Source: Candidatus Omnitrophota bacterium
GTDB lineage: Bacteria; Omnitrophota; Gorgyraeia; Gygaellales; Profunditerraquicolaceae
Assembly (NCBI GenBank): GCA_028716965.1
Contig: JAQUOV010000009.1
Location: forward strand, 22,043-86,042
Direction of reading: 5' to 3'
Length of the DNA stretch: 64,000 bases
Below the pieces are notes generated by a model, which was given only the letters and a program-made list of their open reading frames with translations, made no database searches and was not told where the DNA came from. Both the position numbers and the translations under genes were made by a program. Positions 32,197 through 45,907 of this stretch are shown piece after piece; position 1 is the first letter of the stretch; every line of letters starts with the position of its first letter.

Positions 32197-33588
32197 TTAT
32201 TCTATAGGGATTACTGGTTGGCCTTGCGCGCCGGCAATAGGGAGTATGTGAGAAGAAAGCCATTTACGCTTAAAATAACGGTTGCTCATCAGGAGCGCCT
32301 GGAAGACAAGCGAAATATTCATTGCCCACCAAACACCTGAAGCACCCAATCCAAATGTAACTGCAAGCAGGAAACTTATAGGCAGGCGCACCAGCCAAAC
32401 GCTCAAAACCACAATCAACATCACCCCCCGGGTATCCCCTGCTCCGTTTAAGGCCCCTGCAAGGATAACCCCCCAGGCCATCACCGGCTCAGAGAGCAGG
32501 GCGATATGGATATAACGCACGCATTCTCTAATCACGATTTCATTCGGCGAAAGTAGAGAAGATATAAAATGAGCATTCGCCATTACCAGAACAGTCAAAA
32601 AGAAAACAATGATCACGCCGAATACAGCGGTAACTATGCCAATCAGGAAGGCATCCCTTTTCCTTTTCTTCCCCAGTAAATTCCCCACTACCACCGCCCC
32701 TGCCAGATTAAAGGCAAAAGCGGGAAGAAAAATTGCGGATTCTATTTTTAAGCCGTTGGTAAAAGCAGCCATAATCTCTATATTGTGCTGTGGCAGGGCG
32801 GCCAGGATCAAAAAAAGCACTATCGCTCCCAGCTGCCAAAGTATCTGCATCAGGCCTGCCGGCCAGCCTATGCGGACCATCGCCCTGACTAACAGTGGAG
32901 AAAACATGAATAACCCGGTAATCTTCCGGCGCATAAAGAATAAATTCATTATGCAGCCTATAAAAGAGCTGAATACGGTTGCTACGGCAATCCCCCGGAA
33001 TCCAAGCGGCGTATGAAAAGCAAGGTAAAAATTAAGCACAGCGTTTAACACGCAGACACTTGCCATAGTGACAAGCGAATTACGGATCATGCCGCTGGCG
33101 CGCAGGATACCGTTTGAACTGATCAGAAAATATGAAAAAACAAGGCCGGCGGAATATATACGCAGAAGCGATACGGCATATCCTTTAAGCACATCCGGCA
33201 CTGCCAATGCCTGGATAATACTACGTGAAAATAAGAGCCCTATTATCGTCAAAACGATCCCCGCTACCAGGGAAACAGCGATAGAAGAATCAACCGCGGC
33301 AGTATAATCTTCTTTTCTCTCTGAAGTATAGAGCCTTGAAACCAGTGAGACGGAACCGACAGTCAAGGCGAAAACGATTATGCTCAGGATAAAATAAATC
33401 TGGGAGGCCAGGCCGTATGAAGCCTGGATCTCCTTGCCGATCCTTCCGGCGACATAAACATCTGCTAAGCCGATTAAAAACAGGAAAAACATGATCAAGG
33501 TCATCGGCCAGCTCGTTGACCAGCTCTGGCGGAATAATGAACGCGTTCTTTCCTCCTTAATCTTTCTTACAATATCATCAATAAGCAT
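32197..33588 (-). CDS. MATE-family efflux transporter
   Basis: 463 aa with 12 TM helices and an internal-repeat organisation typical of MATE/NorM proteins. Confidence 0.75.
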   Translation of the reverse strand: MLIDDIVRKIKEERTRSLFRQSWSTSWPMTLIMFFLFLIGLADVYVAGRIGKEIQASYGLASQIYFILSIIVFALTVGSVSLVSRLYTSERKEDYTAAVDSSIAVSLVAGIVLTIIGLLFSRSIIQALAVPDVLKGYAVSLLRIYSAGLVFSYFLISSNGILRASGMIRNSLVTMASVCVLNAVLNFYLAFHTPLGFRGIAVATVFSSFIGCIMNLFFMRRKITGLFMFSPLLVRAMVRIGWPAGLMQILWQLGAIVLFLILAALPQHNIEIMAAFTNGLKIESAIFLPAFAFNLAGAVVVGNLLGKKRKRDAFLIGIVTAVFGVIIVFFLTVLVMANAHFISSLLSPNEIVIRECVRYIHIALLSEPVMAWGVILAGALNGAGDTRGVMLIVVLSVWLVRLPISFLLAVTFGLGASGVWWAMNISLVFQALLMSNRYFKRKWLSSHILPIAGAQGQPVIPIE

Positions 33589-33650
33589 TTTGGCTTTTAA
33601 ATGGAGCAGTATATTTTTACCAACTCAAAATAAAATATTTATAGGTGGGT

Positions 33651-33679
33651 ATTATAAGGCTGGATATAACGATTATCAA
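33651..33679 (-). promoter_or_regulatory. Sigma70-like promoter TTGATA-17-TATAAT upstream of the MATE gene
   Basis: On the minus strand, -35 at 33674-33679 and -10 at 33651-33656. Confidence 0.4.
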
Positions 33680-33711
33680 GTAAATTCGGGGTTTATCCTG
33701 GGCTAATGCCG

Positions 33712-34146
33712 CTAAGATATCTCTTTCAGCCAGGACTCGATTTTTTGATTGATCTGTTCCTTTACTACCCGCGTCTTCTCTAACTTCTCTTCCCATGTTC
33801 CCTGGAATCTTGCCGGGTCATCAAAACTCCAGTGTATCCTTCGGGTAGCAGATGTCCCCGGGAAAACAGGGCATTTCTGCGCCTGGGATTCATCGCAAAC
33901 CGTAATCACAAAATCATACCTTTTCCCCTCTCTGTAAAAATCAAACACGCTCTTGGTCTTGTTGGCTGATATGTCAATACCGATTTCGCGCATAACCTCA
34001 ACTGCTAACGGGTTCAATTCGCCCGGTTCAAGCCCTGCGCTTTCCACCTCAAAATTCTCTCCGCCGTCGCGTTTCAATAGAGCCTCGGCCATCTGCGACC
34101 TGGCCGAATTATGCACACAAACAAACAAAACCTTTTTTTTATCCAT
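33712..34146 (-). CDS. LMW-PTP-fold arsenate reductase (thioredoxin-coupled ArsC type) or low-molecular-weight phosphatase
   Basis: CX5R P-loop (CVHNSAR) plus the downstream Cys pair [10 protein letters not shown], reminiscent of Bacillus-type ArsC. It is the last gene of the pst-phoU operon. Confidence 0.65.
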
Positions 34147-34168
34147 AACGACGATCCCCCGATAAAGA

Positions 34169-34837
34169 CTATTGTAACTTTTCCGGATGATGCTTGACTA
34201 CCTCGGCGTTAACCATATAAATGACATCTTCGGCGATATTAGTGGCGTGGTCGCAGATACGCTCAAGGTGACGGGCGATCAGAAGAAGCGGCACTGCGCG
34301 CGCAGCCGAAGAAGGGTCTTTGCCCATATATTCTTCAATCAGCTCCTTCTGGACTAAATTGCGCAGTTTATCTGCCTGGTTGTCATGTAAAATTACGCTG
34401 CCGGCTAACTCCGCATCTTTATTCACAAAAGCGTCTAATGCGTCTTTTGTCATTTGCTGGGCAAGGTTGGTCAACTTCGGGATATCAATGAGCGGCTTAA
34501 GCAACGGTTTACCCGCCAGGTCATTTACGCGCTGGGCGATATCTACCGCCAGGTCCGCTATTCTTTCCAGGTCGGTTGAGATCTTCATGGACATGGTGAT
34601 AAAACGCAAGTCTATTGCCATCGGCTGCCTGAGGGCCAATAAATCAAGGCACCTTTCATCAATGGCATTTTCCATTTCGTCAATGGCCCGGTCCTCTTTG
34701 ATCACTTTGCCTGCCATCTCTATATTTAACTCCTTCAGCGATTCAACTGATTCAAAGATCGCCCCCTCCACCAAAGTGCCCATCTTAAGCAACTGCTTCT
34801 TTAAATCTTCCAACTCCTGGTCTAAATGTCTTTCCAT
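34169..34837 (-). CDS. phoU: Phosphate transport system regulator PhoU
   Basis: 222 aa, two PhoU repeats, adjacent to pstB. Confidence 0.85.
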
Positions 34838-34864
34838 ATCAAACCTTCTTTCTTTTTGTATTTT

Positions 34865-35626
34865 TTATCCGAACCTTCCGGTGATATAGGCCTCGGTCTT
34901 GGGATCATTAGGCTTGGTAAAAATATCCTGGGTTTTACCAAACTCAATAAGTTCCCCCATTAAGAAAAATGCCGTATAATCTGAAACCCTTGCCGCCTGC
35001 TGCATATTATGCGTAACGATTACAATGGTATATTCTTTTTTCAACTCCGTAATCAGTTCCTCTATTTTTGCGGTGGATATAGGGTCTAGACTGGCGCACG
35101 GCTCATCAAACAGGATGACTTCAGATTCCACTGCCAGGCTCCTGGCAATACACAATCTTTGCTGCTGCCCTCCGGACAGCCTTAAGGCGCTGTCATGCAG
35201 CCTGTCCTTTACCTCCGGCCACAACGCCGCTTTCTTTAATGACCATTCTACCTTTTCTTCAATAAATAATCTATCCTTAATTCCGTTTACTTTAAGGCCA
35301 TAGCTGATATTGTCAAAGATGCTCTTTGGAAAAGGGTTGGGTTTCTGAAAAACCATCCCTACCTGCCTTCTGATCTCAACGGCATCAACAGAAGGGCCAA
35401 AGATATCCATGCCGTCCATGTATATACCGCCGAGAAGGGAGGTATTAGGCACCAACTCATTCATGCGGTTTAATAACCTTATGAATGTAGATTTACCGCA
35501 CCCCGATGGCCCGATGATTGCCGTAACATGGTTCTTATAAATATTAAGATTTATGTCTTTTAACGCATGGGTCTTGCCGTAAAAAAAATTTACCTCGTCG
35601 GCATACATCTTTATGCTGTTATCCAT
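34865..35626 (-). CDS. pstB: Phosphate ABC transporter ATP-binding protein PstB
   Basis: [34 protein letters not shown]. Confidence 0.9.
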
Positions 35627-36467
35627 GATAACTCCTCTGTCTTTGACGGATGAATATAGCTATAGCTGAAATCAACAAAACCAAGAAAAGAAGGATCAGG
35701 CTGCATCCATAGGCAATTGCCTTTTGTTTAACCGGATGCGCTCCTTCAGTCATCAAGGCGTATATATGATAAGGCAGCGCCATAACCTCGCTGAAAATAC
35801 TATTGGGGTAGCCGCGCTTATAAAAAGCGGCGGCGGTAAAAAGTATCGGTGCGGTTTCGCCTGCCACCCTGCCGACGCTTAATATGACGCCCGTAAGTAT
35901 GCCCGGTAGCGCCGTAGGCAAAACTATCCTTTTGATCGTCTGCCATTTACTTGCCCCAAGGGAAAGCGATGCCTCGCGTATTGAGTGCGGCACAGCCACC
36001 AGGGCCTCCTGTGAAGCTGAAATAATCAAAGGAAGCGCAAGTATCCCGAGGGTAAGGCTTCCTGAAAGTATGGATACCCCAAAACCGAATAATTTTACGA
36101 ATACCGATAAACCAAACAGGCCGAAAACAACCGATGGCACTCCGGCAAGGTTATTAATGCTGATACGGATTATATTGACTACGAAACTTTTAGGCGAGTA
36201 TTCGCACAGGTATATGGCACAGGCAAGCCCCAACGGAACGGCAAAAAGCATTGAGCCTAAAGTCAAATAAAACGTTCCGACGATAACAGGAGCAACCCCT
36301 CCTTCGGTCATGGCGTTGCGTGGAGCCTGGGTGAGAAACTCCCAGGAGATCACCTGGATCCCCCTGGAGAAAATGAAATAAATGATTGTCCCCAGGAAGA
36401 AGAGGGTGGTCAGTATGCATAAGAACAACGATGAAAACCCTATATTTTGAAGGACCTTCCCTTTCAT
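35619..36467 (-). CDS. pstA: Phosphate ABC transporter permease PstA
   Basis: Six-TM permease with an EAA-type loop. Placement in the operon. Confidence 0.85.
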
Positions 36468-37339
36468 CCGCTTAACCCCAGTTTTATCCTGAACTTGCGT
36501 GATATAACCTCGGCGATGATGTTAAATACAAAGGTGATCAAAAACAGTATCAAGGCTATCGCAAAAAGCGCATGGTAATGGCTGCTGCCCATGGGGGCCT
36601 CTCCCATCTCTGCGGCAATGGCGGCGGTCATTGGGCGCACCGGCTCTAAAAAAGTATGCGGGATGACTGCCGAGCCGCCGGCAACCATAAGCACCGTCAT
36701 CGTCTCACCTATCGCCCGGCTCATTCCTAAAATCACCGCAGTAGATATTCCCGAACCTGCTGCCGGTATTATTACCTGCGTCAACGTCTGCCATCTGTTT
36801 GCTCCTACGGCAAAAGAAGCCTCCCTGAAGGAATGCGGCACATAACTTAGGGCATCCTCCGCTATACTGCAAACAGTAGGCGTAGCCATTAAACCCAGGA
36901 TAAAGCTTGCATTTAAAGCAGTCAGGCCGGTGGGAAGATGGAATATCTTCTGAATAAATGGCGTAAGCACCACCATACCGAAGAACCCATAAACAACCGA
37001 AGGGATGCTGGCTAAGAGCTCAATAAGTGGCTTCAGGAGCCTTCTCTGCCTGAAACTTGCCAGTTCATTCAGATAAAGCGCGCTGCCTACGCCCAAAGGA
37101 ACACAAACAATTACCGCCCCTAAAGTAACCCAGGCCGAAGCCAGGATCAAAGGCAGTATCCCAAATTCCGGAGGGCTATAAGTAGGATACCAGAACTTGC
37201 CTAATACAAAATCGCCGATACTTATTTTTGAGAATATAGGAAGGCTTTCCTTAAAAAGGACAAAGACTATACCGACCAGAAATACCAACGAAGAAAAAGC
37301 CAATATAGTAAATATCCACTTATATATTTTTTCTTTCAT
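36464..37339 (-). CDS. pstC: Phosphate ABC transporter permease PstC
   Basis: Six-TM permease. Placement in the operon. Confidence 0.85.
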   Translation of the reverse strand: MKEKIYKWIFTILAFSSLVFLVGIVFVLFKESLPIFSKISIGDFVLGKFWYPTYSPPEFGILPLILASAWVTLGAVIVCVPLGVGSALYLNELASFRQRRLLKPLIELLASIPSVVYGFFGMVVLTPFIQKIFHLPTGLTALNASFILGLMATPTVCSIAEDALSYVPHSFREASFAVGANRWQTLTQVIIPAAGSGISTAVILGMSRAIGETMTVLMVAGGSAVIPHTFLEPVRPMTAAIAAEMGEAPMGSSHYHALFAIALILFLITFVFNIIAEVISRKFRIKLGLSG

Positions 37340-37455
37340 ATTGCTCTGATAAATTATTTATATAGTAGCTAACCCCCTTCTCGTTATCGGCCAAAATTAT
37401 CTTTGATAATTTCATCCTACTCGAAGGGGTTTCGCTAAGTCAAAACTTAAGGTGC

Positions 37456-38271
37456 TCATTTTAACCCGACATACCCCTGTTCTTCAACTATTTTTTGCCC
37501 CTCTTTGCTCTTTACGAAATCAAGGTATTCCTTGGCCAGGCCCTTCGGCTTTCCGTTGGAATACATAAAAAGCGGGCGAGTCACAGGGTATTCTCCGGAA
37601 AGCACAGTTTCCCTGGAAGGCATGACCCCGTCTATAGAAAGAGGTTTGATCTCCTTCGTCACATAACCCAATCCGACATAACCGATAGCCGACGGTGTCT
37701 GGGAAATAACGGTAGAGACGGCCTGGTTGGATGCCTGCATGAGCGCATCTGATCTGACCTTTTCTTTATCCATAATCAGTTCGCCGAATGCTTCAAAGGT
37801 ACCGCTTGAGGTATCGCGGGAAACAACTACTATCTTTCCCGGATTGCCGCCTAGCTGCGACCAATCGGATACCTTGCCGGTAAACATATCCTTAACCTGC
37901 TCTTTGGATAACTTGGATATCGGGTTTGAATTATTTACTACTACCACTATGCCGTCCATAGCCACAATATGCGCAACCGGGTCCCTGCCGTTTGCGGCTG
38001 CTTTCTGTATCTCGGTATCTTTTATTGCGCGCGATGCATCAGCTATATCACAAGTACCGTCAATCATTGCGGCAATCCCCACGCTTGAGCCTCCGCCGCG
38101 CACCGTAATATCCGCACCCGGATTATTATCCATAAAAACCTCTGCTGTCTTCTGCGCGATAGGCAAGACAGTAGTGGAACCGGCCAAGACGACCTTTTCT
38201 GCAAAACAGGCTGGGGCTGAAACGCTTAGCCCGATTAGGCCTGCTGCCATCAATATTGCAAACTTTTTCAT
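37456..38271 (-). CDS. pstS: Phosphate-binding protein PstS
   Basis: Signal peptide, and the GSTT…GGSS…SRD… periplasmic phosphate-binding-protein motifs. Confidence 0.85.
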   Translation of the reverse strand: MKKFAILMAAGLIGLSVSAPACFAEKVVLAGSTTVLPIAQKTAEVFMDNNPGADITVRGGGSSVGIAAMIDGTCDIADASRAIKDTEIQKAAANGRDPVAHIVAMDGIVVVVNNSNPISKLSKEQVKDMFTGKVSDWSQLGGNPGKIVVVSRDTSSGTFEAFGELIMDKEKVRSDALMQASNQAVSTVISQTPSAIGYVGLGYVTKEIKPLSIDGVMPSRETVLSGEYPVTRPLFMYSNGKPKGLAKEYLDFVKSKEGQKIVEEQGYVGLK

Positions 38272-38302
38272 CTAACTACCTCCGTATTTTATTATCCTAT
38301 CC

Positions 38303-39610
38303 TTAAAACTTCATATTCCAGTCAAACTGGACTAAAGTCTCAGGGGCCTTCCTGGATGCGCTCATTATATTCCAAGAACGGTAAACATCAAGCCCTAAAA
38401 ACGTATTTTTACCTAAGCCAAAGTTAACACTGCACTCATGGCTTCTCATCCCGGTCTTACCGCCGTAACGGTCAGAATCGGGTAGGGCATCAAGCACTGC
38501 GTCTTTTTCAAGCATGGCATAGATATATTTAACCTGCCAATCTCCCCATTTTGAAATTTTATCATTACCGAATTGAAAACCCAGGGAAAAACCGGTGTTT
38601 TGATTGGGCGCGGCAACGTTATCAACATATTCGCCGAATATTTTCAACTTCTCTATGCCTAAACCCAGCGCCTTAAAAGGTTCCTTTATGCTTAATTCCA
38701 GGGCCGGGTTCATCATGTTGTAATTATAGGTATATGTGCTGCTGCCTGCGGTTGTATTTCCGGTGTTGGTAGCTGATGATTTTGAACCCGAGGTTGAACC
38801 CTTAAGGTTGCTGAAATTATACATGGCAAAAGCGCCTTTTAATGAAGTAGAATCGGTGAGCTTCTGGCTTGCTCCTACCTGGACGATATAAGCCATGCAA
38901 GGATCCGAGGTACTTGAGGTATCGTCAACAATAATCAACCCGCCTGTTTTGGCAAATAACGAGGTTGAAGAGTTTAAGCTCTTGCTGAACCCAAGCACTC
39001 CTCCTTCAGGAGTTATATCCGAATCCCAGATCAAATCGGTCGGTTCCCAGAATACATCATTAGGAAGCATTTTACCGCCTACCAGCTCTAACCAAGGCAA
39101 AGCGGAATACTTGGCATAAGCGTAATCCAGCCTGACTTCGATTTTGGATGAATATCCGGATCCGCCGGAGGTACTATTTTTGGTTTTTCCAAACGTAATA
39201 TTTCCGGAACGGGGATCGCCTTCACCGGTAGTTATACCGATTCCTGCCATAAGTTTTTCATTTATCTTAGCTTCCAGGCCAAGGCGCATACGTACACGCC
39301 CGATATTCTCATCTTTCTGGATATTTCCGTCTTGTTTGGTATGTTTATATTGATACCTCAATCTCAGGTCGCCCTTTAACTTGATATTTTGTATCCAGGC
39401 CGGCAGAGAGGCTGATTTACCTATAGCGATCTCTTTCTTCACCTGTTCCTGCGTTTCAATCTTCACCTGCTGCGCTTCAGCGCCGGTCAAGACTCCCTTC
39501 TCTACTAATTTTTGAAGTAAAATATCCACTTCTCCGGCGTGTGACGGCCAAACCCCCAGGCACATCATAAAAAAGCCCGTTAATACAAACAACGACAAAA
39601 ATCTCCTCAT
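38303..39610 (-). CDS. Outer-membrane porin (phosphate-selective OprO/P-like by context)
   Basis: Signal peptide and alternating beta-strand pattern. The C-terminal residue is Phe (…WNMKF). It lies immediately upstream of pstS. Confidence 0.6.
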   Translation of the reverse strand: MRRFLSLFVLTGFFMMCLGVWPSHAGEVDILLQKLVEKGVLTGAEAQQVKIETQEQVKKEIAIGKSASLPAWIQNIKLKGDLRLRYQYKHTKQDGNIQKDENIGRVRMRLGLEAKINEKLMAGIGITTGEGDPRSGNITFGKTKNSTSGGSGYSSKIEVRLDYAYAKYSALPWLELVGGKMLPNDVFWEPTDLIWDSDITPEGGVLGFSKSLNSSTSLFAKTGGLIIVDDTSSTSDPCMAYIVQVGASQKLTDSTSLKGAFAMYNFSNLKGSTSGSKSSATNTGNTTAGSSTYTYNYNMMNPALELSIKEPFKALGLGIEKLKIFGEYVDNVAAPNQNTGFSLGFQFGNDKISKWGDWQVKYIYAMLEKDAVLDALPDSDRYGGKTGMRSHECSVNFGLGKNTFLGLDVYRSWNIMSASRKAPETLVQFDWNMKF

Positions 39611-39627
39611 CTTCTTTTCCTCCTGTT

Positions 39628-39816
39628 CTAATTGTTACGATATAACCTATCTGCCTTACGTGCGTTTGCTCTTATTCTCTCACTTCCACCTCCTTCGCCT
39701 GGCTTGGTTCCAAATATCTGACTGTAGTATTTTATTATCCTTTCAGCCTCCTGCGAGGCCATCCTGTCTAAAAAATTTCTTACCGTGTAAATTATCTTGT
39801 TAAAAAACGCTTTCAT
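39628..39816 (-). CDS. Small ORF (62 aa), translationally coupled to the upstream small ORF
   Basis: Its ATG overlaps the stop of ORF 39813-40019 (ATGA). No family recognised. A weak Pho-box-like repeat lies near its 5' end. Confidence 0.25.
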   Translation of the reverse strand: MKAFFNKIIYTVRNFLDRMASQEAERIIKYYSQIFGTKPGEGGGSERIRANARKADRLYRNN

Positions 39817-40019
39817 CTCTCTACCCCCACAAGCCCGCAGTCCTTTTCTCCGCTATAGCTATATCCGTATGTAAAATTAATATAAGGACTAAACAGCGGG
39901 CAAAGTTCATAAAGAGCCAGGCAGTAGTTTTCTCTTTCAAAAACCGACGGCACCATTAAACCGTCTTCGTAACGGCGGCATGTAGCGTATTTACTCTTTG
40001 AGCTTAAGCAGGGACACAC
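39813..40019 (-). CDS. Small Cys-containing ORF (68 aa) immediately after the orphan receiver gene
   Basis: It starts 4 nt after the stop of the receiver gene. It has 6 Cys and no recognisable family. Confidence 0.25.
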   Translation of the reverse strand: MCPCLSSKSKYATCRRYEDGLMVPSVFERENYCLALYELCPLFSPYINFTYGYSYSGEKDCGLVGVER

Positions 40020-40022
40020 CTT

Positions 40023-40517
40023 TTAATTCCCCCCTTCCGACCAAGATCTGCCTATTGAGCTATGCAGCAAAACAGAGTATTTCTTATCCCGCATAACTGT
40101 CAGCTCTTTAATGATATTTATCAGCTTATTCACGGAAAAAGGCTTGGTAATGTAATAATCTGCCCCTACCATATTCCCATAGACCATATCTTGAGACTCT
40201 GCCCTGGCGGTTAAGATAACTACGAATGTATTAAAAGCTGCCGGGTTTTCCTTGACCGTTTTGCAGATACGGAAACCGTCGATACTTGGCAGCATAATAT
40301 CCAGGACCACCACATCAAAGACCTCCCTGGAAAGCCTTTCCTGCGCTTCAAAACCATCATAGACAGATTCAGTTATAAAGCCGTTCTTGGAAAGATTATA
40401 GGAAACGAGCCTGTTGATGTTTATGTCGTCTTCAACAACCATTATTCTTTTCTCTTTTTTTACTGCCTGCGCTTCCATCATAGGATAAACCTCAAGCAAA
40501 TTGCCGGTAGAAAGCAT
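40023..40517 (-). CDS. Orphan single-domain response regulator (receiver)
   Basis: IMVVEDD…VVLDIMLP…ILTAR…KPF receiver motifs. The probable true start is M13 at about 40481, which has a GAGG RBS. Confidence 0.75.
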   Translation of the reverse strand: MLSTGNLLEVYPMMEAQAVKKEKRIMVVEDDININRLVSYNLSKNGFITESVYDGFEAQERLSREVFDVVVLDIMLPSIDGFRICKTVKENPAAFNTFVVILTARAESQDMVYGNMVGADYYITKPFSVNKLINIIKELTVMRDKKYSVLLHSSIGRSWSEGGN

Positions 40518-40689
40518 CCATCGCCTCTCGTTCTTCGGCGATAATCCTTTTCAAGCAGGCGGCAATTTTTTTTAGTATGTTTTTTATGGCTTCTCTCATA
40601 TTTGCATTAAGTTTACAAAAATCGTGTAACAAAATCCTTAAAAGATTGTGAATTTCTTGTGAACTTAATTTAACCTTGCGATTACGCAT
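40492..40689 (-). CDS. Small helical ORF (65 aa) between the first phoB-like gene and the orphan receiver
   Basis: Its ATG overlaps the stop of the first phoB-like gene (GATGCGTAA). It is basic and helical. It also contains a Pho-box-like direct repeat, so it may be non-coding. Confidence 0.25.
   Translation of the reverse strand: MRNRKVKLSSQEIHNLLRILLHDFCKLNANMREAIKNILKKIAACLKRIIAEEREAMDAFYRQFA
40646..40664 (-). promoter_or_regulatory. Pho-box-like direct repeat TTCACAA-N4-TTCACAA (minus-strand reading)
   Basis: The plus strand reads TTGTGAAtttcTTGTGAA. 11-bp periodicity typical of OmpR/PhoB-family tandem binding. Matches the Bacillus PhoP TT(A/C/T)ACA-N5 consensus. Confidence 0.45.
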
Positions 40690-41398
40690 CGAATTTATAC
40701 CCCTCCCCTTTGACCGTCTTGATCAACCTTGGGTTTTCGGGGTCTCTCTCTATCTTTTCCCTGAGATGCCTTATATGAACATCAATGTTCCCGTATTCAA
40801 CGATATTATCCTCTCCCCAAACCATATCCAGGATCTTGCTGTGGTTTAAGACCCTCCCTGGGTTATTAATGAATAATTTAAGTATTCCCTTTTCCTTTTC
40901 CGTAAAGAATACCTCCTGGTTATTGCGCTTTGCCGCCATGCTCTCCCCATCTATCTCTAAAGAGCCGATCTTAATATTCTTCGTACTAAGGTTCCTATTC
41001 TCGGACCTGGATAAGACCCTTTTTACCCTTACTATCAACTCTCTTGGACTAAACGGCTTGGTAATGTAGTCATCGGCCCCAAGGTCAAAACCCTTGAGCT
41101 TTTCATCAAGCCCGGAAAGGGCGCTGAGCATAATAATCGGTATATTGCTTGTGTGAGGATTTTGCTTTAAGCGCCTGCATACTCCCCAGCCGTCAATCCT
41201 GGGAAGCATGATATCAAGGATAATTAAATCGGGGTTTTGCAGTTCACAGGCTTCCAGAGCTTCGATACCGCTGTTTGCGGAAAGCACATCGTATCCGGAT
41301 ATTGAGAGATTAAAGATAAGCAACTTTACAAGTTCTTTTTCATCATCTACAACTAAAATCTTTCTTTTTGTAACCATATACTCTCCTTTAATTATCAA
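40682..41398 (-). CDS. OmpR/PhoB-family response regulator (first copy, downstream of the kinase)
   Basis: Receiver domain (ILVVDDE…LIILDIMLP) plus winged-helix trans_reg_C (…VHIRHLREKIE…IKTVKGEGYKFD). Confidence 0.85.
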   Translation of the reverse strand: MIIKGEYMVTKRKILVVDDEKELVKLLIFNLSISGYDVLSANSGIEALEACELQNPDLIILDIMLPRIDGWGVCRRLKQNPHTSNIPIIMLSALSGLDEKLKGFDLGADDYITKPFSPRELIVRVKRVLSRSENRNLSTKNIKIGSLEIDGESMAAKRNNQEVFFTEKEKGILKLFINNPGRVLNHSKILDMVWGEDNIVEYGNIDVHIRHLREKIERDPENPRLIKTVKGEGYKFDA

Positions 41399-41438
41399 GG
41401 AAAGTATATAAACCTGAGGTTACAATATCATTAAGATA

Positions 41439-41456
41439 ATGTGAACTTTCTGTGAA
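41439..41456 (-). promoter_or_regulatory. Pho-box-like direct repeat TTCACAG-N4-TTCACAT upstream of the first phoB-like gene
   Basis: The plus strand reads TGTGAActttcTGTGAA. It is followed on the minus strand by TATTGT 11 nt downstream and an AGGAG RBS. Confidence 0.5.
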
Positions 41457-41501
41457 TTATTTAGATAGATTTTAAGGAAACGGGTGGCGCTGCATGTAAG
41501 G

Positions 41502-43277
41502 TTATACCAGCGGGATGGTAAAGCTGAAAGTAGAGCCAAGCCCCGGTTCTGATTTTACCCAGAGCCTGCCTCCGTGGGCGGAGACGATATGCTTGACGAT
41601 GGATAAACCAAGGCCTGTTCCGCCGAGTTCGCGGGAGCGGGCCTTGTCTACGCGGTAGAAGCGTTCAAATATCCTCGGAAGGTCTTTTTCGGAAATACCT
41701 ATGCCGGTATCGACGACATCAACCTGCACATAATTATCAACTAGGCTGGCAATAATGGAAACCGAGCCATTTTCAGGTGTATATTTTATGGCATTGTCCA
41801 AAAGATTTATCATTACCTGGGAAAAACGTGCTTCATCAGCCCTTATTCTGGGGATATTTGATGGGATATCAAGCCTAAACGTAATTGACTTTGCTTTAGC
41901 CTGATTCTCTAGAACGGTTACTGCCCGTTTTATTACCGAAACAGTATCAAGCGGCATAAACAACATCTTCATTTTCCCGGATTCTATCCTTGACAGGTCC
42001 AGAAGGTCATTGATTAAACTGGCCAGGCGATCGGAATCCTGATAAATAATGCTTATGAATTCTTTTAAATTTTCCTTGTCTTCAAGCGCGCCCTCGAGAA
42101 TTGTCTCCGCGTAACCCTTTATGCTTGATATCGGCGTACGCAGTTCATGAGAGACATTTGCTACGAAATCCTGCCTTATCTGCTCAAGGCGCCTTAATTC
42201 GGTAATATCATGAAAGACTAATATTGCCCCTTCAAGCCTGTTATTGCGCATAATCGGCACGCCGTTTACCCTTAAAATCCTCTCTTCGGGGATATTGACG
42301 GATATCTCTTCGGTGGCAAGATGCTGTTTACCTTTAAGGATCTTATCAACCATCTCCGCTACGGCGGCATTCCTGATGATTTCAAGCGGTTTTTTACCTT
42401 CCGGGTTTGAGTCCAAAAGAAATATCTTGCGCAAAGACGGGTTCATCAGGGTAATCCTCTCCTTATCGTCGGTAACAATCACCCCTTCAAACATGCTTGA
42501 GAGGACGAGGTCAAGTTTGGCGCGCTCGGCATCTATCCTGTCTATCTTGTCCTTTATCTGTTCTGACATTGAATTTAAAGACTGCGCAAGCTGGCCGATT
42601 TCATCTCTTGAGCGCATACGCGCCCTCTTTGAAAAATCTCCTTTTGCCATTGCTTCGGCAACAGCCGACATCTCGGTAAGAGGCTGGGATATAAAGACCG
42701 ATGCCAGGAAAGTCAAGCCCAGGCTCAATAAAAGGATACAGATAATGCTTATCGCCACAACATTGCGCATTTTCGCTTCAAGCAGCTCAATGTCGTGCAG
42801 CGGCACGGAAAACCTTAAAACTCCTGATCCCTGGCCGTAGGCAAACGGAATAGCCATATAAAGCATGTATTTTTTAATCGTATAGCTATAACGCTTGCTC
42901 AATCCTAAACCTGCCGCAAAAGCATCTTTGACCTCCGGGCGGCCTGCGTGATTTTCAACCTTAAACAGATGCTCTTTTGTTAATTCACCGTCACCCAGTA
43001 CCTTTCCGTCGGAAGCAATAATCGTTACGCGCAGGCCAAGAGCCTTATCCATACTTAGAGCCAACTCCTGAAAATCAGCAGGGGTTACTTTATCTTTCAG
43101 ATTTGTCTCTAGAAGGTCTTTACCGAGCGCAAGCTGGTGCTTAATATTGTTTTCCAGGTTATTTTCAATATAGGATTTAAGGTGGGAATCCAGATAAAAA
43201 TATCCGGTTGAGACAGCAAGTATAACAACAAGACAAAAAACAAAGGTAAGCTTCCAATGGAGTTTAATCTTCATCAT
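41502..43277 (-). CDS. PhoR-like sensor histidine kinase (TM, periplasmic domain, TM, HAMP, PAS, HisKA, HATPase)
   Basis: H-box SHELRTPI, N-box NLLDNAIKYT, G-boxes DTGIGI and GGTGLGLSIV. It overlaps the upstream regulator gene. Confidence 0.85.
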   Translation of the reverse strand: MMKIKLHWKLTFVFCLVVILAVSTGYFYLDSHLKSYIENNLENNIKHQLALGKDLLETNLKDKVTPADFQELALSMDKALGLRVTIIASDGKVLGDGELTKEHLFKVENHAGRPEVKDAFAAGLGLSKRYSYTIKKYMLYMAIPFAYGQGSGVLRFSVPLHDIELLEAKMRNVVAISIICILLLSLGLTFLASVFISQPLTEMSAVAEAMAKGDFSKRARMRSRDEIGQLAQSLNSMSEQIKDKIDRIDAERAKLDLVLSSMFEGVIVTDDKERITLMNPSLRKIFLLDSNPEGKKPLEIIRNAAVAEMVDKILKGKQHLATEEISVNIPEERILRVNGVPIMRNNRLEGAILVFHDITELRRLEQIRQDFVANVSHELRTPISSIKGYAETILEGALEDKENLKEFISIIYQDSDRLASLINDLLDLSRIESGKMKMLFMPLDTVSVIKRAVTVLENQAKAKSITFRLDIPSNIPRIRADEARFSQVMINLLDNAIKYTPENGSVSIIASLVDNYVQVDVVDTGIGISEKDLPRIFERFYRVDKARSRELGGTGLGLSIVKHIVSAHGGRLWVKSEPGLGSTFSFTIPLV

Positions 43278-43968
43278 CTTCTTTAAATCTATAGCCTAAA
43301 CCCCTGACCGTCTCTATTTGGCTCCCTGCCTTGCCGAGCTTCTCTCTGAGACGTTTTATATGGGTATCAACGGTACGCGTAAATACATCGGCATGCCTGT
43401 CCCAGACATCGGAAAGCAGCTGGTCCCGCGACTGGATGCGGCTTTTTCTTTCAATAAGAGTTACCAACAGTTTGAATTCTATGGGGGTAAGGTAAACCTC
43501 TTTGTTGTTCACCGTAACCCGGTGCCGGGGAATATTGATAACTAGGCTGCCTCTTGCGATAGTCTCTTTCGGATCCTCCTGGGCCTTGCCTCTTTTTAAG
43601 ACCGCTTTTATACGCAGGATCAATTCCCTGGGGCTGAAAGGTTTTACCACATAGTCATCTGCGCCGATCTCCAGGCCTACGATCCTGTCCACCTCTTCGC
43701 CCTTGGCAGTAAGCATTATAACGGGAATGCTATTTAGTTTTGGATTTTGCTTGATCAGGCGGCATACTTCAAAGCCATCCATCTTTGGAAGCATAATATC
43801 CAGGATGATTAAGTCTACGCCCTGCTTGCCTAAAACATTCAACGCCTCTTCGCCGTCATCCGCAACCGTACAATCATAACCGGCTTTCTCTACGTTGTAT
43901 TTTACAAGCTTGGATATGTGCTTGTCATCTTCAATTATAAGTATATGCTCCCTTTGCATAAACAGCAC
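43264..43968 (-). CDS. OmpR/PhoB-family response regulator (second copy, upstream of the kinase)
   Basis: Receiver domain (ILIIEDD…LIILDIMLP) plus a winged-helix C-terminal domain. Confidence 0.85.
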   Translation of the reverse strand: MLFMQREHILIIEDDKHISKLVKYNVEKAGYDCTVADDGEEALNVLGKQGVDLIILDIMLPKMDGFEVCRLIKQNPKLNSIPVIMLTAKGEEVDRIVGLEIGADDYVVKPFSPRELILRIKAVLKRGKAQEDPKETIARGSLVINIPRHRVTVNNKEVYLTPIEFKLLVTLIERKSRIQSRDQLLSDVWDRHADVFTRTVDTHIKRLREKLGKAGSQIETVRGLGYRFKEDDED

Positions 43969-43982
43969 CTCTTTATGTTCTC

Positions 43983-44010
43983 ATTTTAGCACCTCCCGTA
44001 ATAATCTCAA
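43983..44010 (-). promoter_or_regulatory. Sigma70-like promoter TTGAGA-16-TAAAAT upstream of the phoB-like/phoR-like pair
   Basis: Read on the minus strand. It is followed by an AGAGGTG RBS. Confidence 0.35.
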
Positions 44011-44023
44011 GTAATATAAAACT

Positions 44024-44114
44024 AGGCTGATAATCAGAACGTAGCGCATATCAGCCTGAAAAATATCATTAATCTAAATAATAGGGCAGGCTACTTTAAA
44101 CAAATAGCCTGCCC
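44024..44114 (-). terminator. Two tandem hairpins downstream of glnK (GGGCAGGCUA…UAGCCUGCCC with 9-bp stem and U-rich tail; AGGCUGAUA…UAUCAGCCU with 9-bp stem)
   Basis: Perfect inverted repeats at 44084-44114 and 44024-44057. The first is followed on the minus strand by a U-rich stretch. Confidence 0.5.
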
Positions 44115-44137
44115 TAAGATTGGACGGTAAGAATTTT

Positions 44138-44491
<354 letters not shown>

Positions 44492-44548
44492 TTAACTCTC
44501 CCCCGGCACCCTTATAAAGGCACCCGGGAGAGTTAAAAGAAAATATTG

Positions 44549-45907
44549 TTAATTGCTGTGTGAATAGAAATTCGGATACGCCGGTGTACCATGCTCCGGG
44601 ATATCCAATCCTTTCAACTCCTCTTCCGGAGTAACCCGTATACCGAAATATTTATCCATGGCCTTAAACACCACTAACCCCAGCAGTAAGGCCCAACTGA
44701 CGCAGACTACGGCGCCGATAACCTGCGCGATCAACTGCCCGGCTCCGCCGCCATATAATAAACCTCTGACCAACGGTCCTTCGGTAGTGCCCAGGCCATA
44801 TGTGCCATCTGCAAAGAGCCCTACGCTGATTAACCCCCAGACACCGTTTATCCCGTGGACGCTCACCGCCCCGACCGGATCATCTACTCCTCTTGCTTCC
44901 CAGAAATAAACACTCAACACAACCAGGGCTCCTGCAACCGCGCCGATTACAACCGCTGCCCATGCTTCAATCCAGGCACAAGGAGCAGTAACGGCAACAA
45001 GGCCTGCAAGGCAGCCGTTTAACATCATGCCTACATCCCATTTCTTGGTCTTCTTGAATACCAAAAGGATCGCTACCGCAGCGCCGGCAGCAGCAGCCAG
45101 ATTGGTATTTACGGCGATAACGGCGATCCTTAACTGGTGCGCCGAAAAAGTAGAACCCGGATTAAAACCAAACCAGCCAAACCACAAGATGAATGTACCT
45201 AACGCGGCTAAAGTAATGCTGTGTCCGGGTATGGCTTTTGGCTTACCGTCTTTACCGAACTTGCCGAACCTTGGCCCTAACACAATAGCGCCGGCCAAAC
45301 CTACAAAACCGCCGATAGTATGCACTACTCCCGAGCCTGCAAAATCAATATGCCCTAATCCGAAAGGTATCTTTGATAACCAGCCTCCACCCCATACCCA
45401 ATGCCCGTATATAGGGTAGATTATAGCAGTGACAGCCAGGCTGTAGAGAAAATAAGCTTTAAATTTAAGGCGTTCAGCAATGGCTCCGGAAACAATGGTA
45501 GCGGCTGTGCCGGCAAATACCAGCTGCCAGAAGAAAACCAGGTACCTGCCTACATCATAATTTGAACCGTGCAAAAACCATCCCGTAGTCCCGATAAGCC
45601 CATGGTAATCGTCCCCCATCATGAAAGCAAAACCAAAAGCCATAAAGATCAAAGAAGCAACCGTAAAATCAATAGTATTCTTTGCCATAAGGTTAGTGGC
45701 ATTCTTGGCCCTGCAAAAACCCGCCTCCACCATAGCAAAACCTGCCTGCATGAAAAACACTAAGAACCCGCATACCAGGACCCATACATAATCAACCGGG
45801 GCTTGCAGGTTTTCTGCAAGCGTGGCGGCTCCGCCGGGGTCCTGAGCAAAACAAACGGAAGCCAGCCCCAGTAATGCCGCAACGAATAAACCGATAACTC
45901 TAAACAT
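44549..45907 (-). CDS. amtB: Ammonium transporter Amt
   Basis: 452 aa with 11 TM helices and Amt signature regions. It lies immediately upstream of glnK. Confidence 0.9.
   Translation of the reverse strand: MFRVIGLFVAALLGLASVCFAQDPGGAATLAENLQAPVDYVWVLVCGFLVFFMQAGFAMVEAGFCRAKNATNLMAKNTIDFTVASLIFMAFGFAFMMGDDYHGLIGTTGWFLHGSNYDVGRYLVFFWQLVFAGTAATIVSGAIAERLKFKAYFLYSLAVTAIIYPIYGHWVWGGGWLSKIPFGLGHIDFAGSGVVHTIGGFVGLAGAIVLGPRFGKFGKDGKPKAIPGHSITLAALGTFILWFGWFGFNPGSTFSAHQLRIAVIAVNTNLAAAAGAAVAILLVFKKTKKWDVGMMLNGCLAGLVAVTAPCAWIEAWAAVVIGAVAGALVVLSVYFWEARGVDDPVGAVSVHGINGVWGLISVGLFADGTYGLGTTEGPLVRGLLYGGGAGQLIAQVIGAVVCVSWALLLGLVVFKAMDKYFGIRVTPEEELKGLDIPEHGTPAYPNFYSHSN

Follow-up and report, generated by a model that had tools for sequence, protein, structure and literature searches.

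Candidate PhoP-type Pho-box promoters flank a second response regulator gene upstream of a phosphate-uptake operon in Omnitrophota

Introduction

The closest described counterparts of the element studied here are the operators of PhoP- and PhoB-type regulators. In Bacillus subtilis, the core binding region of PhoP consists of four hexamers that resemble TT(A/T/C)ACA and recur every 11 bp (Eder et al. 1999, cited in PMC11870197). Among actinobacteria, the best motif of Corynebacterium glutamicum PhoR is CCTGTGAAaatCCTGTGAA, whose reverse complement reads TTCACAGG-N3-TTCACAGG (PMC3353115), while the repeats are GTTCACC-N4-GTTCACC for Streptomyces coelicolor PhoP and TCACAGC-N4-TCACAGC for Mycobacterium tuberculosis PhoP (PMC4832192). 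The Pho box of the Escherichia coli pstS promoter has two 11-bp units with a CTGTCAT core, which replace the -35 element (PMC4415409). Here we analyse two TTCACA-N5-TTCACA repeats in a 64,000-nucleotide stretch of DNA (the window) from a Candidatus Omnitrophota bacterium (assembly GCA_028716965.1, contig JAQUOV010000009.1, positions 22,043 to 86,042). The repeats follow the genes of a response regulator (RR1) and a PhoR-like kinase, lie on either side of a second regulator gene (RR2), and precede a receiver-only gene (REC), a porin gene and pstSCAB-phoU.

Further described systems bear on the genes around the repeats. CheY1 of Sinorhizobium chemotaxis is reportedly a single-domain receiver that acts as a 'phosphate sink'. 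In the 3' region of Bacillus phoPR a PhoP-dependent promoter drives the small RNA PhoS (PMC11522486), and small DUF1127 proteins bind PhoR (PMC12501420). Full-text literature searches found no published receiver-only gene inside a pst operon, no 'single-domain response regulator' or 'phosphate sink' in a Pho context and, among the top matches on phosphate, PhoR and pstS, no Omnitrophota paper; we likewise found no experimentally studied gene regulation in Omnitrophota in the literature.

Results

Repeat pairs A (TTCACAGAAAGTTCACA, 41456-41440) and B (TTCACAAGAAATTCACA, 40663-40647) lie on the minus strand, the coding strand here, in short intergenic gaps: the first between the kinase stop and the RR2 start, the second between the RR2 stop and the next cistron. 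They are the sole matches to TTCACA-N5-TTCACA in 64 kb at zero or one mismatch, against shuffle expectations of 0.00 at zero mismatches (0 of 100 shuffles with any) and 0.24 at up to one. The degenerate Bacillus form TTHACA-N5-TTHACA finds the same two sites alone, against 0.08 expected. At three mismatches there is no enrichment in the window (34 found, 48 expected), so the repeat signal rests wholly on the two exact sites. Boxes of the E. coli CTGTCAT type show no enrichment in the window: 5 occur where 3.2 are expected, and none of the five stands at a promoter.

A sequence-only reading of this DNA had reported both repeats and compared them to a TT(A/C/T)ACA-N5 consensus with 11-bp periodicity. 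Both points hold: the repeats are exact at 41440-41456 and 40647-40663, and the TTHACA scan and the 11-bp phasing agree with the consensus. The spacer that it gave as gaaa is correct, but the one given as gaag is really aaag. Its weaker third copy, placed at about 39783-39800, is a chance match in coding sequence. We rejected this candidate (TTAACA-AGATAA-TTTACA, 39786-39803) since its N6 spacer and 12-bp period fail the N5 pattern, a weight matrix derived from nine real sites does not place it among its six best minus-strand scores, and it lies within codons 5-11 of the conserved open reading frame (ORF) s62, the motif being found in none of the eight full-length s62 orthologues recovered.

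The two sites share a common 54-bp register, which includes degenerate half-sites and a -10 element and reads TTCACA-N5-TTCACA-N5-TTAA(T/G)G-N5-GT(A/T)AC(C/A)-N9-TA(T/A)ACT. Read from the sequence, the candidate promoters are as follows.

41403..41456, minus strand: Pho-box promoter A, preceding RR2; half-sites TTCACA 41456-41451, TTCACA 41445-41440, TTAATG 41434-41429 and GTAACC 41423-41418; -10 TATACT 41408-41403
40610..40663, minus strand: Pho-box promoter B, beginning 18 nt past the RR2 stop; half-sites TTCACA 40663-40658, TTCACA 40652-40647, TTAAGG 40641-40636 and GTTACA 40630-40625; -10 TAAACT 40615-40610

We aligned nine sites from five genomes without gaps. The half-sites start at offsets 1, 12, 23 and 34, in 11-bp phase, and the invariant positions are both TTCACA hexamers, the GT.AC of the fourth half-site and the TA.A.T of the -10, with flanks that cannot be aligned. 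A TAnAnT hexamer occupies offset 49-54 in 9/9 sites, 9 bp past the last half-site, and none of the nine has a -35 or TTGACA-like hexamer 16-18 bp from the -10. Relative to the start predicted from this -10, the four half-sites would span roughly -60 to -22. Judged by its sequence, the module has the geometry of an activator-dependent promoter, with tandem regulator dimers in place of the -35. The TTCACA pairs are, at this level, Pho boxes of the Bacillus/actinobacterial PhoP type: each sequence-level defining feature that we tested was present.

We compared the module with the described operators. It shares with the B. subtilis PhoP region the hexamer class, the 11-bp phasing, four coding-strand repeats that replace the -35 and a PhoR-type partner kinase with HAMP and PAS domains. 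However, the distal hexamers here are invariant and perfect and the proximal pair is conserved but different (TTAAKG, GTNACN), the host belongs to a diderm candidate phylum and the regulator-kinase operon is without a box. The core and 11-bp period are identical to those of the C. glutamicum motif, box A reading TTCACAG, and the same four-repeat box also occurs upstream of pst operons on the Solirubrobacterales-like contigs described below; the differences from actinobacterial boxes are the other phylum, the AT-rich flanks and the fixed sigma-70-type -10. Like the E. coli Pho box, the module consists of tandem 11-bp direct repeats, the last ending about 10 bp upstream of the -10, with no -35; as in E. 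coli, a Pho-regulated porin (here predicted) accompanies pstSCAB-phoU, and the RR1 DNA-binding domain is most similar to PhoB. The half-site sequence differs from that of E. coli.

Next, we fetched Omnitrophota genome loci through the kinase protein (our labels L001, L002, L003 and L012; kinases 55-60% identical to the window kinase). In each of these loci the exact motif follows the kinase stop by 33-36 nt, and three of them have a second copy further downstream, before REC, porin or pstS. Orthologous B sites ahead of receiver or porin-pst genes are found in L001, L003, L012 and many metagenome contigs, and 0/11 non-Omnitrophota loci carry the exact motif. RR1 is 65-75% identical across the four genome loci. 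In L002, L003 and the metagenome contigs L043 and L062, RR2 and REC are absent between kinase and porin and the box is kept, with RR1 and kinase immediately upstream in 4/4. The small size of the motif is all that speaks for a chance match or a relic of local duplication without a regulatory role. Against this, no shuffle contained an exact match, and the motif is exact and its positions conserved while the flanking intergenic sequence has fully diverged; on the sequences compared, we consider this explanation already refuted by the conservation.

Enrichment at phosphate-starvation genes, on which the sequence-only reading had staked its case, was sought on metagenome contigs with the pattern TTCACA-N5-TTCACA-N5-TNNA-N7-GTNAC. 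The scan gave at least 127 sites on at least 120 stretches; the counts that follow are among the matches listed, of which 76 were assessable, having at least 1.5 kb downstream. The pst genes lie downstream in 50 of these 76. AT-rich Omnitrophota-type contigs repeat the window architecture in three grades. The full grade runs RR1, kinase, box A, RR2, box B, the 35-aa ORF p35, REC, (the ORF c68), s62, porin, pstSCAB, (arsC), phoU (for example L066, L069, L106, L112, L129 and L134). A second grade has RR2 without REC (L023, L025, L053, L064, L068), and in the third both are missing and the box stands immediately ahead of small ORFs and the porin (L002, L003, L043, L062).

On contigs of 64-76% GC, pst genes follow 29/35 assessable sites. 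This GC-rich class, counted as contigs of at least 60% GC, is Solirubrobacterales-like, one member of the first-gene family being named Solirubrobacterales in NCBI, and its PstS proteins are 22-31% identical to the window PstS; it is a lineage independent of Omnitrophota. The gene behind the box, at +73, encodes a stand-alone Trans_reg_C winged-helix protein of 95-120 aa and is followed by pstSCAB-phoU (L058 10677-11801, L103 49-1200, L042, L126 and about 45 other GC-rich loci among L016-L135). The family comprises more than 1200 clusters. A BLAST label had named this gene a receiver, which we rejected, since both our reading of the sequence and Pfam identify a stand-alone Trans_reg_C protein. 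In L058 and L103 the gene of a full-length OmpR-type regulator, with a recognition helix resembling that of the stand-alone protein, comes to its end shortly before the box. The identification of the two exact repeats as Pho boxes of the Bacillus/actinobacterial PhoP type is thus supported by the 11-bp phasing, by four in-phase half-sites replacing the -35, by conservation in Omnitrophota and by the association with pst.

The remaining AT-rich matches stand mostly at unrelated genes and are probably due to chance; plausible phosphorus genes among them are a secreted Exo_endo_phos protein (L124) and a DUF2490 gene followed by pstS (L039). Six AT-rich contigs (L049, L057, L082, L093, L111, L125) have in common a module that is nearly identical among them, TTCACAAATTCTTCACACAAAGTTCAAAGAAGGGTAACA-N9-TATACT. 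In five of them the next ORF with 30 aa or more starts about 150-400 nt downstream, L111 having a 35-aa ORF at +81, and none of the six shows pst genes. One possible reading is a small RNA or a long leader that is driven by the box in another lineage.

Every gene of this region is on the minus strand. The gene inventory of the sequence-only reading was confirmed with Pfam and NCBIfam: two OmpR-family regulators flank one HAMP-PAS-HisKA-HATPase kinase and are followed by the receiver-only protein, porin, pstSCAB, phoU and an ArsC-like gene. In transcription order, around the two promoters given above, the features are as follows.

44138-44476, minus strand: glnB with a strong terminator, first in transcription order, before RR1
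43983..44010, minus strand: putative sigma-70-type promoter of the RR1-kinase operon, TTGAGA-16-TAAAAT with TG before the -10 (a prediction; 10/12 matches in a consensus scan)
43264..43959, minus strand: RR1, OmpR/PhoB-family response regulator (Pfam Response_reg and Trans_reg_C)
41502..43277, minus strand: PhoR-like sensor histidine kinase with N-terminal sensor region, HAMP, PAS, HisKA and HATPase (Pfam)
40682..41377, minus strand: RR2, second OmpR-family response regulator (Pfam)
40492..40599, minus strand: p35, 35-aa microprotein, first cistron behind box B
40023..40481, minus strand: REC, receiver-only response regulator, 152 aa from the ATG at 40481 (Pfam: Response_reg only)
39813..40019, minus strand: c68, Cys-rich 68-aa ORF, overlapping the s62 start (ATGA)
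39628..39816, minus strand: s62, 62-aa ORF between c68 and porin
38303..39610, minus strand: outer-membrane porin, Porin_5 (Pfam PF16930, E 9e-47)
37456-38271, minus strand: pstS (NCBIfam PstS-family model, above cut-off)
36464-37339, minus strand: pstC (NCBIfam PstC model, above cut-off)
35619-36467, minus strand: pstA (NCBIfam PstA model, above cut-off)
34865-35626, minus strand: pstB (NCBIfam PstB model, above cut-off)
34169-34837, minus strand: phoU (NCBIfam PhoU model, above cut-off)
33712-34146, minus strand: low-molecular-weight phosphatase/ArsC-like gene (Pfam LMWPc; NCBIfam ArsC 117.5, below the 174.3 cut-off)

The 3' end of RR1 overlaps the kinase start by 14 nt, the kinase stop is 45 nt from box A, and the RR2 stop is 18 nt from box B. 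The pstSCAB-phoU genes lie directly downstream of the two-component genes on the same strand, in a block that spans 33712..38271 (minus strand) with the ArsC-like gene, and the porin precedes pstS in all related loci. An exact-sequence look-up of the kinase gave no record; for the REC sequence there is one, an NCBI protein labelled 'Candidatus Omnitrophica bacterium'.

We then considered which proteins could read the boxes. The kinase scores 461.8 bits against the NCBIfam model PnpS (PhoR-type), above its cut-off of 400, and 316.4 against proteobacterial PhoR, below 334.2. It is hardly credible that the repeats serve an OmpR-family system that senses a non-phosphate signal, such as a WalRK-like envelope signal, with an incidental pst linkage. 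The kinase does reach 434 bits on the WalK model, and the WalR half-site TGTWAH, the reverse complement of DTWACA, is similar to that of B. subtilis PhoP. However, this score is far below the WalK cut-off of 725 whereas the PnpS/PhoR-type score is above its own, the C of TTCACA stands at a position where WalR sites require A or T, and pst-phoU operons accompany the motif in two unrelated phyla. The cyanobacterial RpaB/HLR1 system also differs, as RR2 falls below the RpaB cut-off and the repeats here have an 11-bp period, against 10 bp in HLR1 repeats.

The likely box-binding activator is phosphorylated RR1 (RR1~P), because genomes without RR2 and the receiver keep the boxes. The DNA-binding domain of RR1 alone has E. 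coli PhoB as its best match in the Protein Data Bank (PDB; E 1.3e-16), and its recognition helix, RTVDTHIKRLREKL, is near-identical to that of E. coli PhoB, RTVDVHIRRLRKAL. The matches listed include 28 Omnitrophota-type upstream flanks with a length of 1 kb or more. RR1 and the kinase are present in 23 of them, and among the other five those of L026 and L054 extend for about 2.3-2.4 kb.

RR2 is about 39% identical to RR1. Among NCBIfam models it scores best with RpaB (224 bits, cut-off 330) and PhoB (215 bits), reaching neither cut-off, and the closest match to its DNA-binding domain is M. tuberculosis RegX3. The two OmpR-family regulators of the sequence-only reading stand, but its phrase 'duplicated PhoB-like regulators' claims too close a kinship. 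Many contigs carry an RR2 orthologue of 52-77% identity behind box A; the gene is accessory and absent from some other loci. In L012 (11895-12596) the second regulator behind box A is 42% identical to RR1 against 38% to the window RR2, and two opposite-strand genes and then box B follow. Compared at sequence level, this suggests that a second regulator behind the kinase arose or was acquired more than once independently.

RR2 itself might be the activator, autoregulating from box A and driving pst from box B, with RR1 serving another output. Positive autoregulation from a box upstream of the own gene is typical of two-component regulators, and no box precedes RR1. We nevertheless consider this improbable: the box and pst operon persist without RR2 in L002, L003, L043 and L062, RR1 and the kinase have overlapping genes and occur together in 23 of the 28 flanks, and the RR1 DNA-binding domain is the more PhoB-like. 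Alternatively, both RR1~P and Pho-induced RR2~P could recognise the TTCACA repeats, with RR2 as a second-tier amplifier or competitor in a feed-forward or feedback loop. The predicted transcription of RR2 from box A, its affinity to the phosphate-responsive RegX3 and a recognition helix (IDVHIRHLREKI) similar in kind to that of RR1 are in keeping with shared boxes. So is the different, more RR1-like regulator at the same position in L012, from which it seems that a second DNA-binding protein of the PhoB kind has been needed repeatedly. But the two regulators differ at several recognition-helix and wing positions, lineages without RR2 keep identical boxes, and we found no separate second motif by which targets of RR2 could be defined. 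On balance we judge shared boxes unlikely, and retain RR1~P as the favoured activator.

The genes behind box B were analysed for signs of function. In REC, the acidic pocket, phospho-acceptor Asp, Thr and Lys are intact, and the motifs EDD, VLDIMLP, LTA and KPF are conserved in 12 family members. Its best NCBIfam model is PhoB, in the receiver half, and the best 120 clusters listed among its relatives share 48-76% identity with it, almost all of them being 133-180 aa long and the named ones mostly Omnitrophota/Omnitrophica. Helix alpha-1 is the main kinase-contact surface of receivers, and the REC consensus there, enlNrLISYNLSKNG, is closer to the KHISKLVKYNLEKAG of RR1 than that of RR2 is, a weak hint that the kinase of RR1 may also phosphorylate REC. 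GADYY replaces GADDY in REC and the alpha-5 Arg is lost, residues which we take to form salt bridges of PhoB-family alpha4-beta5-alpha5 dimers. For these reasons we set aside as less likely the idea that REC poisons RR1 by forming heterodimers. Our guess from the sequence is that REC competes for phosphoryl groups, the most economical reading; such competition would amount to negative feedback because REC is predicted to be Pho-induced.

The p35 sequence is MREAIKNILKKIAACLKRIIAEEREAMDAFYRQFA, ending in MDAFYRQFA. Six orthologues, all 35 aa long, differ by codon position as 203/170/325, a third-position excess, and a ribosome-binding site stands before most of them; on this coding signature, p35 is a real microprotein. 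The c68 ORF has the Cys pattern CPC...C...C...C, and its orthologues in L026, L066 and L069, 62-81% identical, occupy the corresponding place in the locus. In s62, which has orthologues in 8 loci, the N-terminal 35 residues resemble p35 and are followed by a Gly-rich basic tail. Both c68 and s62 are conserved small genes between receiver and porin in several Omnitrophota contigs, and p35, c68 and s62 have no Pfam match. In L001 (4244-5692) an s62-like sequence is in frame with the porin with no stop between them, as a 482-aa ORF from a GTG. This ORF would make the porin signal peptide internal, and it probably represents two genes or a sequencing or assembly difference.

Finally, we considered the transcription units. 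The porin-pst operon had been assigned a box of its own in the sequence-only reading. A weight-matrix scan found no box or promoter just upstream of the porin and the genes from REC to porin are tightly packed; box B instead heads p35, the receiver, c68, s62, porin, pstSCAB, phoU and arsC. The sole terminator-like hairpin between REC and porin, at 39965-39946, is weak and lies inside c68. Downstream of the glnB terminator, no convincing terminator was found as far as the pst cluster extends, which makes basal read-through of RR1-kinase transcripts probable.

Discussion

We consider it probable, on the sequence evidence as a whole, that promoters A and B are Pho-box promoters driven by RR1~P. 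Under phosphate limitation the PhoR-like kinase would phosphorylate RR1. Two RR1~P dimers, bound head-to-tail, would bring in RNA polymerase in the manner known from the PhoP core binding regions of B. subtilis and from the pstS promoter of E. coli. The TTCACA pairs would then be the high-affinity halves of four-half-site promoters (TTCACA, TTCACA, TTAAKG, GTNACN). Promoter A would induce RR2, and promoter B one long operon of p35, REC, c68, s62, porin, pstSCAB, phoU and the ArsC-like gene, so that two Pho-inducible promoters, of which A includes and B excludes RR2, would be nested on basal read-through. RR2, REC and the small ORFs (p35) are thereby predicted members of the Pho regulon. The roles of RR2, REC and p35 would most likely lie in modulating the response, with REC competing for the phosphoryl groups of the kinase. 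The sequence-only reading had suggested a branched phosphorelay or a phosphate sink; with RR2 and the receiver under Pho-box control, any such role would act as feedback.

Several points weigh against this explanation. The source is a metagenome-assembled genome of an uncultured organism. The metagenome scan pattern was derived from window-type promoters, so that its Omnitrophota matches are orthologues and the GC-rich class alone is independent. RR1 itself falls below the cut-off of its best NCBIfam model, PhoB TIGR02154 (254.7 against 296.2 bits). A weight-matrix scan found no box upstream of the RR1-kinase operon in the window, L002 or L012, unlike the autoregulated phoBR/phoPR of model organisms. 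RR2 stands directly behind box A, the position expected of an autoregulated regulator; together with its domain being closest to that of a phosphate-responsive protein, this means that RR2 could also bind the boxes. The absence of RR2 from L002 and L003 refers to 5-22 kb of sequence, not to whole genomes. The window p35 starts about 4 nt after the predicted transcription start, without a Shine-Dalgarno sequence.

The accessory genes have partial likenesses among described systems. Both in the PhoS case and here a Pho-dependent unit (predicted in our case) starts right behind the phoR-type gene, but here it has a protein-coding product, RR2, with genes after it. REC resembles CheY1-type sinks in being receiver-only, with an intact phosphorylation site and a gene beside the presumed kinase, and p35 resembles DUF1127 proteins in being very small and encoded in a Pho locus. 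Unlike those proteins, p35 and s62 have no match to DUF1127.

The stand-alone Trans_reg_C protein can be viewed as a DNA-binding-domain-only counterpart of REC, which is the basis for a broader and more tentative idea. Omnitrophota may have built feedback into the Pho switch, the boxes also inducing REC, RR2 and p35 (with its paralogue in s62) to tune or end kinase-to-RR1 signalling, mirrored by the box-induced DNA-binding domain that heads the pst operon of the Solirubrobacterales-like soil bacteria, so that Pho-induced 'half-regulator' decoys would be a recurrent and so far undescribed principle in the design of phosphate signalling. We regard this idea as possible but doubtful.

The element itself is ordinary, a known box type in a new phylum, and the Pho-driven accessory module (RR2, REC, p35/s62, c68) is a mildly novel variant of a known circuit. 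The boxes extend the PhoP/PhoB operator to Omnitrophota, a phylum of mostly uncultured, often ultra-small bacteria, and the 54-bp model (half-sites, phasing and -10) can be used to predict Pho regulons in this phylum and to read metatranscriptomes. Less ordinary is the conserved wiring, which places a second regulator, a receiver-only protein and microproteins behind predicted Pho boxes between the kinase and pst genes. Should these accessory genes provide feedback, the locus would be a compact example from nature of a two-component system that carries its own decoys; if not, the result is routine regulon annotation.

Additional features of the locus

An Rfam scan of 33000-45000 gave a sub-threshold t44 match alone (E 0.81), and the window contains no tRNAs. 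Upstream of glnB, TTCACACAGCAATTAACA (window 44547-44564, minus strand) is a degenerate repeat pair with N6 spacing that overlaps the amt stop codon and is a chance-level match. S. coelicolor PhoP binds the amtB and glnR promoters (PMC2691820); neither amt nor glnB was found in the loci related to the window. A hairpin with a 9-bp stem (aggctgata...tatcagcct) lies at about 44025-44065 (minus strand), between the glnB terminator and the predicted RR1 promoter, and just ahead of it stands TTAATGATATT, the same letters as the third half-site region of box A.

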